A DNA stretch of 48,134 bases from Nitrospiraceae bacterium (GTDB taxonomy: Bacteria; Nitrospirota; Nitrospiria; Nitrospirales; Nitrospiraceae), in assembly GCA_037442105.1 (NCBI GenBank), contig JBBIQV010000021.1, positions 1 to 48,134 of the forward strand, given 5' to 3'. Numbering within the stretch: the stretch's first letter is position 1; every line of letters begins with the position of its first letter. The position numbers were made by a program. Below are positions 12,001-18,000 of this stretch, piece by piece.

Positions 12001-15000
12001 CTTCACCGGACCGTCCAAGCGATTAAGGAACGGCGCGTGAAGGCCGGCGTGACCCTCAATCCGGCCACCCCGCTCTCCACGCTGGAAGAGATCGTCGCTG
12101 ACGCGGATCTTATCCTGATCATGTCGGTGAGCCCCGGATTTGGAGGACAGCGTTTTATTCCTTCTGTGCTCGACAAGATTCGGCGGGCGCGCCAGTTGAT
12201 CGACCGCACAGGCAGCCGGGCTGCGCTCGAGGTCGATGGTGGAGTGAAAGTCGACAACGCTGCGGAGATCATTGATGCGGGGGCGGACATTCTCGTGGCC
12301 GGATCGGCCATCTTCTCCAGCCGTGAATATGGCACGACTATCGCGGCGCTCAGAGCAGCCGGCACCTCCACCCGTCAAGCCGAGCGCTCCGCCAAACCGG
12401 CATCGGCGGGCCGGTAAGCGAGGCAGGGTGGATATCTCTTCCGTTATCGACAGCCTTCATCCCCTGGAAGTGAAAGTCCTCGCCACGTTCGGGCAACGTG
12501 CCTCCGACCAGGCATTGTCGCTCGAGGAGCTTGCCCAGGCCACCGTTCTCGAATCCTCGCAACTGAGCATGGCCGTCGAATGGCTGCTGGCTAAGTCCCT
12601 CGTCAAAGTCGAGAGCGAAACGGTTACGCCGGTCGTCTCGTTGACGAAAATCGGCGATCATTATTTCGAGAAATATTCGCCGATCGAACGAGTGCTTTCT
12701 GCCGCCCGCGACGCGGCCAAGACAGGCAAGCGCCTGACGATTCAGGACGTGCAAGCCAGGGAAAAGCTGGAGCCGACCGAGATGAGCAGCGCGATCGGCT
12801 GTCTCAAAAAGGAAGGGGCGCTGCTGATCGTCCAAGGCGGGTGCATCGAGTCGACGGCGCGGCCGAGTCCTACGGCCGAGGCCATACGAACGCTGCTGCA
12901 ACAGTTGCATGGCGCCTCGCGCGAGCTGCAAGCGTTTCCCGAGCCGCTCCGCCGGGTGATCCAACAGCATGCCGTCAAACGCGGGAACGCCCATGAGCCC
13001 TTCCGCATCGACGAGCGGGTGTCCCGATCCTTCCGGCTGACGTCCGAGGGAGAAGCGGCGGCCCGCTTGATCGCCCAACAGGGCGTGGCTGAGGAGGTGT
13101 CTCAGCTCACTCCGGAGTTGTTGAAAGAGGGAGCGTGGAGGCAGAAGCGCTTCCGGAAATACACCATCAGTCTGCGCGCTCCCCGCATCGCAGCGGGGAA
13201 GCGCCATCCCTATCGTGAGTTTCTCGATCTCGTGAAGACCAAACTCGTCAGCATGGGTTTTCAGGAAATGCGGGGTTCGCTGGTCGAAACAGAATTCTGG
13301 AACATGGACGCGCTCTTCATGCCGCAGTTCCATCCGGCTCGGGACATCCACGATGTGTACTTCGTGAAAGAGCCTACGCATGCTCGCGCGATTGCGGAGC
13401 CTTTCCTGACCCGGGTGGCGAAGGTTCATCACCATGGCGGGGAGACCGGCTCGACCGGCTGGGGTTACCAGTTTGATATCGAGCGGGCGAAACGATTGGT
13501 GCTGAGGAGCCAGGGGACAGCCGTCTCCGCCCGCACTCTCGCCGCGGCGCCGGCGGTGCCAGGCAAGTATTTTTCGATCGCAAGGTGTTTTCGCTATGAC
13601 CAGGTGGATGCGACGCATGCCACCGATTTCTTTCAGGTCGAAGGGATTGTGCTTGGAGATGACATCAACTTCCGCACGCTGTTGGGCCTCCTGAATCTCT
13701 TCGCAAGGGAAGTGGCGCACGCGAAGGAAAGCAAATTCTTGCCGGCCTACTTTCCCTTCACCGAACCGTCCGTCGAGTTGCATGTCGAACATCCGCGTCT
13801 GGGCTGGATGGAATTGGGGGGCGCCGGTCTCTTCAGGCCAGAGGTGACGCTTCCGCTGGGCGTGACTGTGCCGGTCATTGCGTGGGGATTGGGACTGGAC
13901 CGCATGGCGATGGTGGCCTTGGGCATCCACGATATTCGGGATTTGTTCAGTGGCGATCTCGACATGATTCGGGCGACGAGGGGACGTTTCTAACCCACAT
14001 GCCTACGATTTCAGTGAACCGTCACGATCTGGAGCAGCTCATCACCGGGGCGGACTCGACTCGGCAACCGGTGACTCCTGAGCAACTGGAAGCCTGGCTT
14101 CCATTGGTGAAGGGTGAGCTCAAGGGTCAGAATCCGGAGACGGGTGAACTGCGCATCGAGTTGCAAGACAGCAATCGCCCTGACTTGTGGTGCGCGGAGG
14201 GGATCGCGCGCCAAATGCGTATCAAGTTGGAAGGGCATCTGCCGGCCTATCCATTTTTCACCTCCGAGGAACGGCCTCGCCGCCAGCTTATCGTCGCTCC
14301 GGGATTAGAACGGGTGCGGCCTTATGTCGCGGCATGCGCGGCCGTCGGCTATACGGTCAAGGAAGAGGGTCTGGTGCAGCTCATCCAAACGCAGGAAAAG
14401 CTTGCCGACATCTTCGGCCGCAAGCGGCGCACGGTCTCCATCGGCCTGTACCGGCTCCCCCGCGTTGTTTTCCCTGTCACGTATGATCTGGCCGGACGCG
14501 AGGAGGCGAGTTTCGCTCCGCTGGGTGTGGATACGGTCATGACGCTGGGTGAAATGCTCATGGTGCACCCCAAGGGGCTGGAGTACGGGTCGATCCTTGC
14601 CGGTCATGACCGCGTGCCGATCCTGCGCGACGCCAAGGGGCAGGTGCTTTCTTTCCCACCGATCATCAACAGCCGTGAAATCGGCCAAGTGCAAGTCGGA
14701 GATCAAGAGTTGTTTGTCGAGGTCACAGGGACTGACCTGGCGATGGTGGTTCTGACCCTCAACATCTTAGCCGCAAACTTAGCCGACCGAGGGGCAACGA
14801 TCCAGCCGGTAGAGGTGCGGTATCCCTACAACACAGACTTGGGTGCCAGTGTGGTGACACCGTGCGATTGCGGGAAACCGAGGGCGATCCCGGTCGAGAC
14901 GATTGAAAATGCGTTGGGGCTACAGATGGGGGGAGCACAGATCGGGAAGGCGTTGGAAGCCTATGGGTATGGCGTGTCATCGGAGAAAGATCATGTCACG

Positions 15001-18000
15001 GTGAGGCTCCCGCCCTATCGCCACGACCTGATGCATCCGGTCGATGTGGTCGAAGACGTTGCGATCAGCTATGGGTACGACAGCTTTGTGCCGGTGATGC
15101 CGTCTCAGTTCACGGTCGGGAGTTTGACCCGATCGGAACAGATTTCCGACCGTGTGCGCGACCTGATGGTGGGTATGGGCTTTCAAGAGATCATCTCCAA
15201 CATCATGAGCTCTCGGCAGGAACTCTGCGAGAAGATGCGAGTGGACGGGAGCGAGTGGGCGCACGTTGTCGAGGTCGAGAACGTGATGACCCAGAGTTAC
15301 TCGTGTCTACGCCAGTGGTTGATTCCCTCGCTGTTGAGGGTAGAGGCGGAGTCCAGCCGGGCGTTCTATCCTCACCGGGTGTTCGAAGTGGGAGAAGTGG
15401 CGCTTCCAGACCAGCGTGAGGAGGTGGGATCCCGCACGCTCACGTTTTTGGGGGCGATGGTGGCACACGCGGAAGCGAACTTTTCGGAGATCCATTCCTG
15501 TTTGGATCTCCTGCTGTATTACCTCGATCAGTCCTACCGGTTGGAGGTTCTCCAGCATCCTTCCTTTCTTGCCGGACGGGCCGGGCGCATCATGGCCAAT
15601 GGAATGGAAATGGGGCTTATCGGCGAGCTACACCCGGAAGTGTTGGAGCGATGGCAGATCGGCGTGCCGGTCGTCGTGTTCGAACTCGACCTCCGGCACA
15701 TTTCGCCGGGAAACTGACAACGCCGACCTAGGAGCCTGTCCGATATTGCCGTTCGTCACGAGGCGAAGGAGGCGCGGGCAGATGCAAGGCCGCAGGCCCG
15801 GAAAAACCGGAGGCGTATTCGCTGGAATACGGTGAGGATTTTTCGGGGCCGAGAACGACGCAGATGGCTGCGGATCGTTCGCCGCAGTAGAAGGGTCAAT
15901 GTCGGACAGGCTCCTAAGCCGCTGCGAGCTGCTGCTTGGCGAGGCCGACCAGCTTCTCGAACCCAACTGCGTCCCGAATGGCCATATCGGACAGAACTTT
16001 CCGATCGAGCAGGATGTTGGCCTTCTTAAGCGCGTTGATGAACCGGCTGTAGGTCAGTCCGTGGGACCGAACCGCGGCGCTGATCCGTGCGACCCACAGT
16101 TGCCGGAATTCCCGCTTGCGGTTTTTTCTACCGGTGTAAGCATAGGCTTGGCCCTTATCAACGGATTCGGTCGCGGTTCGAAACAGGCGGCTTTTCCCAC
16201 CGTACTGGCCCTTTGCGAGTTTCAGCCGCTTCTTTCGCCGCTGTCTGGTTTTCGGTCCACCTTTTACGCGGGGCATGGATCGTGTCTCCTTTCACAGTCC
16301 ATCGAGCAGTCGCTCGACGATCCTTCTCATATCGGGATTAGTTGTAGGGGAGTAACCGGTTCACGGACAGGGTGGCAGTCTGGGGAATCGCTGCTGCGCC
16401 CGAGAGTCTTCGTTTGCGGCTCCGGCCCTTGCTGGTCAACAGATGCCGCTTCCCCGATTTTCGCCTGCTGAGCTTTCCGCTGCCGGTACGACTCACCCGC
16501 TTGCTGGTACCTGAATGTGTTTTGAGCTTCATCTCCCTCGATCCTTTCCCTGTTTCTTATCACCCCTTCGGTGCAACGATCATAATCAGGCTCCGACCTT
16601 CCATGCGCGGAGCATATTCCACTGTCCCCGAATCCGCCAGTTGTTCGATTACCGAAGCCATCACAGCCCGACCCATTTCCTGATTGGCCATCTCTCGACC
16701 TCGGAATGTGAGGGTCACCTTGGTCTTGTTCCCTTCGGCCAGGAATCCTTTGATCTGGCGAATCTTGATATCGAGATCGTGCTTATCAGTCCGAGGTCTC
16801 AGCTTAATCTCCTTCACCTGCGTCGACTTCTGATGCCGACGACTTTGGTGCTCCTTCTTGCTCAGTTCGTACTTATACTTTCCATAATCCATGATCCGGC
16901 ACACGGGAGGCTGGGACGTCGGCGCCACTTCGACCAGGTCATAGCCATTCTCCTGTGCCTGTCGAAACGCATCCAGAGTAGGCAGGATGCCCAATTGCTC
17001 CCCCTCGGGGCCGATCACGCGAACCTCACGAACTCTGATCTCGCGGTTTACTCTTAGTTTAGGGACGATAGGGCACCTCTCTAGTGAGTCAGTTGGAATG
17101 GCTGCAGGGCTTGTTGGACGTCTGCCCGCAATCGCTCAAGCACGTCGGCCACCGCCATGCTTCCGAGGTTGGCTCCGCTCCGGCCTCGTACCGACACCAT
17201 GCCGCTCTGGGCCTCGCGGTCTCCGACGACCAGCATGTAGGGGATTTTTGCCTTCTCAGCTTCTCTGATTTTGAATCCGATCTTCTCGTTGCGCAGATCG
17301 GCGTCGGCTCGGAACCCTGCCGCTTTCAATTGTTCGGCGACGGCCGTAACATACTCGCGCTGCTTATCCGTGATATTGAGCACGATGGCCTGCACGGGTG
17401 CCAACCAGGTCGGAAATGCCCCCGCGTAGTGCTCGATCAGGATGCCGAAGAATCGCTCGATCGACCCCATCAGAGCCCGGTGGATCATGATCGGTTGGTG
17501 AGCCTTGCCATCTTCGCCCGTGTAGGCGAGTTCGAACCGCTCGGGGTTGTTGAAATCTACCTGCACCGTCGAACATTGCCAAGACCGCCCGAGAGCATCC
17601 TTGATCTTGATGTCGATTTTGGGTCCGTAAAACACTCCCTCCCCGGGATCGATTTCATAGGCGATCCCTCTTCCCATGAGCGCCGACTCCAAGGCTCCTG
17701 TGGCTTGAGCCCACTTCTCCTCAGACCCGACCGCCTTCTCCGGCCTGGTCGAGAGATAGACCTCGAATTCGCCGAAGCCGAACGTGCGCAGGATGAAGAA
17801 AGTGAAATCGAGGACACGGCCGACTTCTTCTTCGATCTGATCGGGCCGGCAGAACAAATGGGCATCGTCTTGCGTGAATCCTCGCACCCGCAGGAGTCCG
17901 TGGAGGACCCCTGTCCGTTCGTACCGATAGACCGTGCCGAGTTCCCCATAGCGGATGGGCAGGTCGCGATAGCTTCGCAGGTGGGACTTGTAGATCATGA

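Follow-up and report, generated by a model that had tools for sequence, protein, structure and literature searches.

The window, the whole 48,134-nucleotide stretch of a Nitrospiraceae genome analyzed here, carries pheS and pheT, the genes for the two subunits of phenylalanyl-tRNA synthetase (PheRS), at the end of a fmt-rsmB-rpe-pheS-pheT run that meets the ribosomal protein gene rplT tail to tail (Table 1). rpe and pheS probably share one transcript. An Rfam scan of the locus for regulatory RNAs or attenuators returned tRNA-Val alone, and promoter- and terminator-like sites occur there at chance level (4 vs 2.8; 8 vs 8.9). The GC and GC3 of the two PheRS genes (0.60/0.74 and 0.59/0.72) resemble those of housekeeping genes (rpoB, 0.58/0.74), which argues that the pair is old in this host.

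Table 1. Features of the pheS-pheT locus (positions in the window).
Feature	Positions	Strand	Remarks
fmt	9301..10242	+	opens the fmt-rsmB-rpe-pheS-pheT run
rsmB	10301..11707	+	4-nt overlap with rpe
rpe	11704..12417	+	ends 10 nt 5' of pheS
pheS, archaeal-type PheRS alpha	12428..13993	+	521 aa, GTG start; N-terminal ~215 aa winged-helix-like, class II catalytic core 245-515
pheT, archaeal-type PheRS beta	13999..15717	+	572 aa; B1, B3/B4 editing region, B5, catalytic-like module; without B2 and B8 anticodon domain
pheT/rplT tail-to-tail junction	15718..15913	.	196 nt; ancestral bacterial pheS-pheT would follow rplT here, minus strand
rplT (L20)	15914..16276	-	
rpmI (L35)	16338..16532	-	
infC (IF-3)	16560..17018	-	real start possibly further upstream
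thrS, bacterial type	17081..19024	-	
tRNA-Val(GAC)	19087..19161	-	upstream of thrS

Both genes are intact and of the archaeal type. The alpha subunit scores 573 bits against the long-form NCBIfam model NF003210 (cut-off 350) and the beta subunit 465 bits against TIGR00471 pheT_arch (cut-off 283), whereas beta reaches only 122 bits against TIGR00472 pheT_bact, whose cut-off is 403; this upholds the first-pass annotation, which had called the enzyme archaeal rather than bacterial in form. Alpha also clears the general pheS model TIGR00468 (345, cut-off 237). The Pfam layout described earlier was reproduced as well, with tRNA-synt_2d at 245-515 of alpha and B5 and tRNA_synthFbeta on beta; the FDX-ACB and tRNA_bind domains, both found in the bacterial-type control L393, are absent from beta in Pfam. 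Among solved structures the best matches of alpha are eukaryotic and archaeal (E 7e-70 and 9e-66; bacterial chains, 1e-33), and those of beta are 2cxi and 3l4g (E 1e-59 vs 2e-17 for bacterial). The predicted model (pLDDT 93) finds its best full-length fold match in human cytosolic 3L4G, with alpha aligned to 3L4G_C over 523 columns. Residues 1-215 of alpha adopt an alpha/beta fold in this model (pLDDT mostly >90), and a weak winged-helix Pfam match lies at 28-62; as in PheRS-A, winged-helix domains of a DNA-binding-like kind would thereby replace the coiled coil in the N-terminal extension.

Four residues that we take to belong to the editing pocket of the P. horikoshii enzyme, Leu202, Ser211, Asp234 and Thr236, align to L209, S218, E241 and T243 of beta. 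The editing-site residue Asn217 and the pocket-entrance residue Ala141, as identified in the available portions of PMC3275996 and PMC4263187, align through 2cxi to N224 and S147, giving a pocket of archaeal type. We propose that the pair encodes the only working (alpha-beta)2 PheRS of the cell, of the archaeal/eukaryotic class, with phenylalanine activation in the alpha core and putative Tyr-tRNA editing in the B3/B4 pocket of beta. Because the bacterial B8 domain is missing, the anticodon is most likely read by the N-terminal domains of alpha.

Searched by tblastn against the 62 contigs of the assembly, the two proteins match these two genes only, in agreement with the earlier claim that the genome has no other PheRS genes. 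A second weak pheT_bact match, considered as a leftover bacterial pheT, turned out to come from a MetRS-like frame on contig C7, at its C-terminal OB fold. The FDX-ACB domain was found in none of five genomes (this one and four relatives); because the present assembly is only 86.7% complete, it is chiefly the complete relatives that support the lack of a bacterial copy.

Across 201 Nitrospirota genomes, an archaeal-type beta is present in 137 of the 140 genomes of nine families and a bacterial-type beta above cut-off in 58 of the 61 genomes of 17 other families, and none of the 201 holds both. The clade-wise family split first noticed with alpha is thus reproduced with beta. Binning contamination or a recent foreign island, to which an incomplete assembly might point, is extremely improbable and in our view refuted, given this family-wide presence, the bacterial fmt, rsmB, rpe, rplT, infC and thrS that flank the pair on one contig, the same gene order in single-contig relatives, and the host-like GC3. 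Archaeal-type PheRS also extends beyond spirochaetes and Nitrospirota, to 39/41 Fermentibacterota, 28/81 Latescibacterota and 9/61 Eisenbacteria genomes. A single origin for all bacterial archaeal-type PheRS was ruled out by approximately unbiased (AU) tests; other Eisenbacteria and Spirochaetota carry a second archaeal PheRS that is independent of the first (AU p<0.001).

Trees of alpha (rooted on bacterial-type alpha), of beta and of both jointly were inferred under LG+C20. In all three, Nitrospirota, Spirochaetia, Fermentibacterota, Latescibacterota and Eisenbacteria form one bacterial clade nested among archaea, with SH-aLRT values, from short searches in which many rows fail the composition check, of 98 (alpha), 99 (beta) and 96 (joint). 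Its sister is a Nanobdellota clade (alpha 95, beta 98); in the joint tree the bacteria group with contig L423 (99) and then with the Nanobdellota clade (99). Separating that clade from the bacteria is rejected by AU tests on fast constrained searches (p 0.010; 0.040 under LG+F+G4). All eight proteins named Woesearchaeota in one search set have their best match in the sister clade, at 60-69%; one named Woesearchaeota protein, P0168, falls outside it. The nearest named kin of the bacterial clade are Woesearchaeota, with L423, itself probably archaeal, closer still. A constraint that unites the bacteria with the Woesearchaeota clade but leaves L423 out is rejected (p 0.005); the immediate sister is therefore not Woesearchaeota. 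The motif 2 signature shared with the bacteria, PQFH plus D before F, occurs in 7/7 sister sequences vs 1/119 from other archaea; 8 of those 119 failed to match the second signature pattern. The closest relatives recorded for the bacterial clade are L423/P0022, P0018 and P0029. Separately, the sample G210 looks, in sequence character, like Halobacteriota.

The donor could instead have been a Thermococcales-like euryarchaeon, the Woesearchaeota affinity then reflecting sampling or long branches, or an uptake of the gene by Woesearchaeota from that same source. Andam and Gogarten 2011, in the part available, place both spirochaete subunits near Thermococcales (PMC3191353); labelled Thermococcales are missing from our trees, as are Methanobacteria, Methanococci, Micrarchaeota, Iainarchaeota, Altiarchaeota and Undinarchaeota, and pheT matches a beta fragment from P. 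horikoshii at 204 bits, about what it reaches with the Woesearchaeota-type sister (median 207) and with Bathyarchaeia (215). We nevertheless regard such a donor as improbable, as alpha and beta each recover this sister clade independently when a mixture model is used, the bacteria and the sister clade have the two-site signature in common, and the branches are not long; the same portion of PMC3191353 also mentions that beta was weakly linked to Nanoarchaeum, the sole DPANN genome it names.

Very unlikely, too, is a transfer to Nitrospirota specifically from a spirochaete. Spirochaetia do fall within the same bacterial clade, and a sister grouping of the two is not rejected (AU p 0.32; 0.59 in an earlier LG+F+G4 test set), but nesting Nitrospirota with four core Spirochaetia rows is (p 0.015), and unconstrained trees place Eisenbacteria or Latescibacterota nearer to Nitrospirota. 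The latter are monophyletic in the PheRS trees (beta 97, joint 97, alpha 88). The question of source left by the first-pass annotation is partly answered: the pair of Nitrospirota does not nest in core Spirochaetia, and its nearest named archaea are Woesearchaeota.

Gene order bears on the history within Nitrospirota. In 18 of 29 archaeal-type loci, including loci of the Leptospirillum group, the pair adjoins rplT in inverted orientation, and a co-directional rplT-pheS-pheT order is seen in 5 of 8 bacterial-type loci; neither arrangement occurs in 18 loci of other phyla. At least two separate acquisitions within the phylum (family f9, perhaps the Leptospirillum group), instead of one ancestral replacement, seem somewhat unlikely. 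The trait changes twice on the best RpoB tree, f9 and f8 loci do not adjoin rplT, and Leptospirillum branches are long in every tree; however, a single RpoB clade of all nine families survives the AU test (p 0.18), one without f13 does not (p 0.001), the inverted junction recurs in f13 (4/5 loci), and f8 and f1 have the fmt-rsmB-rpe-pheS-pheT order in common. Family f9 stands apart on RpoB and lies far from rplT, yet the joint PheRS tree nests it with f4/f12; it may therefore represent a second, within-phylum transfer.

Position 20 of tRNA-Phe is the bacterial U20 or C20 in hosts of archaeal PheRS (C20 in the present genome), and G20, listed as a tRNA-Phe identity element for archaea and eukaryotes, occurs in 0 of 150 among the matches listed. 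The same tRNA-Phe pattern matched no tRNA in 5/5 Nanobdellota genomes. Retention of U20/C20 rules out co-transfer of tRNA-Phe or its conversion to G20. Archaeal and bacterial PheRS-tRNA pairs do not cross-react according to the available part of a review (PMC3275996); the present enzyme is nonetheless a naturally occurring PheRS of archaeal type whose substrate has to be a bacterial tRNA-Phe.

We consider it likely that this sole PheRS-A arose by xenologous replacement, through one archaeal entry from a Woesearchaeota-related source. Both genes would have entered Bacteria together, once, from an archaeon in the Woesearchaeota-related part of the PheRS tree, and would then have spread between bacterial phyla. 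In the ancestor of one Nitrospirota clade (Nitrospirales, the Leptospirillum group and allied families) the incoming pair may have displaced the bacterial one, landing inverted beside rplT. The event itself is an ancient and ordinary gene replacement; its reach and its proposed donor are new. More tentatively, we suggest a joint reading in which a single transfer from a Woesearchaeota-related, non-Thermococcales source gave rise to a PheRS that passed between at least five, and probably seven, phyla of bacteria; Eisenbacteria and Spirochaetota took up another archaeal PheRS independently; the inverted junction with rplT, as a rare change in the genome, links Leptospirillum with Nitrospira to the exclusion of Thermodesulfovibrio-type lineages; and the enzyme came to charge U20/C20 tRNA-Phe, contrary to the stated orthogonality of archaeal and bacterial PheRS-tRNA pairs.

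The pair resembles PheRS of Spirochaeta, Treponema and Borrelia in subunit sizes, in the replacement of both genes together and in falling into one clade with them in all three trees. The available text of Andam and Gogarten 2011 describes the spirochaete enzyme as uniting Spirochaetaceae alone, a gift of Thermococcales (PMC3191353); ours, by contrast, is common to Nitrospirota and at least three more phyla, has Woesearchaeota as nearest named kin and lies inverted beside rplT. What was a textbook one-off thus becomes a clade spanning several phyla, whose source probably lies on the DPANN side, and a further event runs parallel to it. Like PheRS-A of human (FARSA/FARSB, 3L4G) and P. horikoshii (2CXI), it clears both model cut-offs (NF003210, TIGR00471), has the alpha extension, lacks B2/B8 in beta and aligns at the editing residues, but its host is a bacterium with U20 or C20, not G20. 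The archaeal TyrRS and TrpRS of CPR bacteria are likewise DPANN-linked synthetases in bacteria; there, in the portion available of Mukai et al. 2017 (PMC5370408), tRNA identity turned archaeal, whereas here position 20 is unchanged. Bacterial PheRS-B of the thrS-infC-rpmI-rplT-pheS-pheT operon catalyzes the same reaction from the same chromosomal neighbourhood, but differs in its beta subunit (~800 aa, against 572 aa without B2/B8 and below the TIGR00472 cut-off) and in strand, ours lying opposite rplT.

The inverted junction offers a marker, based on gene order, for the disputed deep branching of Nitrospirota. There is also a hazard for phylogenomics: TIGR00468 and TIGR00472 are presumably both among the GTDB bac120 markers, and since the foreign alpha passes the former and beta fails the latter, in such lineages one marker would be xenologous and the other missing.

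The phenylalanyl-tRNA synthetase (PheRS) encoded in this window is a real, ancient and functionally ordinary case of an archaeal PheRS in bacteria. As the first-pass annotation had claimed, both subunits are of the archaeal form: alpha exceeds the cut-off of the long-form model NF003210 (573 vs 350 bits), and beta passes pheT_arch (TIGR00471; 465 vs 283) and fails pheT_bact (TIGR00472; 122 vs 403). A domain search found neither B2 nor B8 (FDX-ACB) in this beta, and both in a bacterial-type control beta from the same phylum; the closest solved structures for both chains are eukaryotic and archaeal. 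The claim that these are the only PheRS genes of the genome also held, as no further copy was found in the assembly (86.7% complete) and no FDX-ACB domain in it or in four near-complete relatives (0/5). Both proteins already carry correct names in public annotation.

Features of the window and of comparison sequences
Sequence	Feature	Position	Strand	Note
Window	pheS	12428-13993	+	521 aa
Window	pheT	13999-15717	+	572 aa
Window	Terminator-like hairpin	15818-15836	+	pheT-rplT junction
Window	Rrf2/CymR-like regulator	20679-21128		
Window	Sulfite/nitrite-reductase-like gene	21205-23709	+	834 aa
L423	pheS-pheT pair	6001-9220		
G035	Archaeal-type pheT	C40:8458-10209		three pieces
G173	Archaeal-type pheT	C11:89876-91553		two pieces
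G092	tRNA-Phe	C19:22366, C38:25626		two matches
G061	tRNA-Phe	C175:279, C227:15466		two matches

Passages of Klipcan et al. (2010, PMC3275996) describe archaeal and eukaryotic PheRS as lacking B8, carrying DNA-binding-like N-terminal domains on alpha and editing within B3/B4, where Asn217 is the P. horikoshii residue; Ala141 marks the pocket entrance of that site (passage of PMC4263187). N224 and S147 of our beta align to Asn217 and Ala141. The alpha structure model (pLDDT 93, pTM 0.58) matches human 3L4G over its full length, and the motif-3 alanine (A485) is invariant across 68 aligned alphas. We infer PheRS activity, Tyr editing and anticodon reading by alpha.

The family-wise split of PheRS type noted earlier within Nitrospirota extends to the beta subunit. 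Our sample of this genome plus 200 evenly drawn ones is not proportional, its kin are not independent, and a few of the strong beta matches (E 1e-41 or better) are fragments. Nine families, this genome counted, have an archaeal-type beta in 137 of 140 genomes (f1 28/28, f2 12/12, f3 2/2, f4 1/1, f5 6/6, f8 7/7, f9 44/44, f12 10/11, f13 26/28; f13 is the Leptospirillum group, from identity with a named protein), and the three without a match are 80–85% complete. pheT_bact exceeds its cut-off in 58 of the 201 genomes, every one among the 61 of the other 17 families, whose remaining three have partial matches; no genome of the 201 has both forms. The broken pheT genes of G035 and G173 are probably assembly frameshifts. 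Bacterial-type pheT is ~690 aa and without the B2 OB-fold in f7, f11, f14–f16 and f18–f26 (L044–L060, L397–L400), its model match beginning near position 156; the 800-aa form is retained in f6 and f10.

Rows for LG+C20 trees (SH-aLRT supports, without bootstrap) were picked from a 245-row FastTree, retaining all clades and thinning near-duplicates: 97 for alpha, rooted on bacterial-type sequences, 78 for beta and 50–51 genomes jointly. Archaea comprised Nanobdellota, Aenigmatarchaeota, Thermoproteota and one phylum resembling Halobacteriota, without Thermococcales, supplemented by named proteins of Thermoplasmata and, in the alpha set alone, of Asgard archaea. In the alpha tree, Nitrospirota, Spirochaetia, Fermentibacterota, Latescibacterota and two Eisenbacteria form a single bacterial clade (98) deep inside archaea, with three unnamed proteins as the next branches outward and a Nanobdellota clade beyond them (joint support 95). 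The beta tree recovers this bacterial clade at 99 and the Nanobdellota sister at 98; within it, Nitrospirota form a clade (97) that includes the Leptospirillum group. Joint support is 96 for the bacteria, 99 with L423 added and 99 with the Nanobdellota clade as well. L423 is a probably archaeal contig whose PheRS pair is the nearest relative of the entire main bacterial clade; surrounding genes resemble archaeal clusters, a lead only.

By sequence matching, the Nanobdellota sister clade can be assigned to Woesearchaeota: in one protein search it was the best match of 8/8 named Woesearchaeota proteins, and P0168, a protein also so named, lies outside it. PQFH before motif 2 with Asp before Phe within it, common to the bacteria, occurs in 7/7 rows of this clade and in 1/119 other archaeal rows; PQTH replaces PQFH in the Leptospirillum group and in four spirochaetes. 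In AU tests (mixture model, fast searches), Nitrospirota as sister to Spirochaetia gave p 0.32, and with core Spirochaetia only p 0.015. One origin for all archaeal-type PheRS of bacteria was rejected (single clade forced, p 0.0008); a second clade with PQDH (seven Eisenbacteria, three Spirochaetota; support 100; L167, L170, L172, L212–L216, L218, L219) is thus an independent entry into bacteria. The published donor for spirochaetes is Thermococcales, with a weak beta link to Nanoarchaeum (text of PMC3191353). As a counterpoint to a Woesearchaeota source, our trees place no Thermococcales, and a beta fragment from P. horikoshii reaches 204 bits with pheT, on a par with Woesearchaeota-type rows (median 207) and Bathyarchaeia (215). 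Given the AU outcomes when Woesearchaeota are pulled away from the bacteria (p 0.010) and when both are joined without L423 (p 0.005), the main bacterial PheRS would have come from near, though not provably from, Woesearchaeota, and a source on the DPANN side is likely.

In the window, fmt-rsmB-rpe-pheS-pheT (+) stands tail to tail with thrS-infC-rpmI-rplT (−). This inverted junction, with rplT downstream of pheT, is found in 18 of 29 archaeal-type Nitrospirota loci (f1, f2, f3, f5, f12, f13 and three named records; gaps of tens of bases to ~3.7 kb) and in 0/18 loci from other phyla. Of the other 11, f9 accounts for five, f8 for two, and f12 and f13 for one each, while two are short contigs; rplT in f9 and f8 is far off or on another contig. 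Five of eight bacterial-type loci (f10, f14, f15, f19, f20) have pheS-pheT after rplT on the same strand, two in f6 have no rplT link and one sits at a contig end. An RpoB tree (28 Nitrospirota, 2 outgroups) unites eight of the nine archaeal-type families (99) and leaves f9 as an unresolved branch, which gives two changes of PheRS type on that tree. AU tests on RpoB (LG+F+G4) did not reject all nine families as one clade (p 0.18) and rejected the clade without f13 (p 0.001), where the Leptospirillum branch is long. The simplest history would be a single replacement at the ancestral site beside rplT; the f9 pair either changed place afterwards or came in by a transfer of its own. GC and GC3 of pheS and pheT are host-like. 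The junction hairpin belongs to a kind of site at chance frequency in the region. In the f6 loci L393 and L394, pheS and pheT lie ~480 nt apart, detached from rplT; RpoB frames of L388 and L389 (f13) are 1445–1496 aa on a very long branch, other Nitrospirota having ~1320 aa.

Position 20 of tRNA-Phe is U in bacteria and G in archaea and eukaryotes, according to passages of Giege and Eriani (2023, PMC9976931). A tRNA-Phe pattern gave 185 matches in 182/201 genomes, with no G20 among the 150 listed. U20 occurs in 60/60 listed matches from bacterial-type families; the 90 from archaeal-type families divide into 69 U20 and 21 C20, the latter all among the 36 from f1 and f2. The tRNA-Phe of this genome has C20. 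Outside Nitrospirota, U20 is present in five genomes with archaeal-type PheRS. On these sequences, tRNA-Phe was not replaced alongside PheRS, and Nitrospirales seem to be relaxed at position 20. G092 and G061 have two matches each, the G092 pair being one U20 and one C20.

The archaeal form, described as a spirochaete hallmark, extends beyond spirochaetes and Nitrospirota. Among the best 80 of 600 stretches from a scan of named genomes, Fermentibacterota, Eisenbacteria and Latescibacterota also showed an archaeal-type alpha, and phylum scans, labelled by their centre genomes, put NF003210 over cut-off in 13/71 Spirochaetota, 28/81 Latescibacterota, 39/41 Fermentibacterota and 9/61 Eisenbacteria, the last denominator including G375, an unpublished genome itself under cut-off. 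Bacterial beta exceeded its cut-off in 0/10 checked archaeal-type genomes of other phyla, and FastTree put one named protein each of Stahlbacteria and Eremiobacterota in the main bacterial clade. Tree figures by Woese (2000) and Chaliotis (2017) may already contain Nitrospira or Leptospirillum. The text of Andam and Gogarten (2011, PMC3191353) limits its description of the trait to Spirochaeta, Borrelia and Treponema and has 0 occurrences of 'nitrospir', figures aside. We found no published report for Nitrospirota, Fermentibacterota, Latescibacterota or Eisenbacteria in sources represented mostly by titles and abstract starts, and no such statement in passages of PMC3636077, PMC5370408, PMC4427996, PMC5581361, PMC11304981, PMC11580382 and PMC12268091. 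Our data offer a wider reach among phyla, a likely DPANN-side source and a second event, together with a gene-order marker and a bacterial tRNA partner for archaeal-type PheRS.

Treponema-like archaeal-type pheS has no pheT in the fetched flanks of L089, L094, L095, L097 and L109, so that part of Spirochaetia has a split pair. Bacterial-type pheS matches of Eisenbacteria (e.g. G361, G362, G370, G405) break near model position 428–430 through an in-frame stretch of ~20 codons. Elsewhere in the window, the Rrf2/CymR-like gene lies upstream of the sulfite/nitrite-reductase-like gene, whose product has a long C-terminal extension with an end that we take to resemble a TusA-type sulfur-carrier domain.
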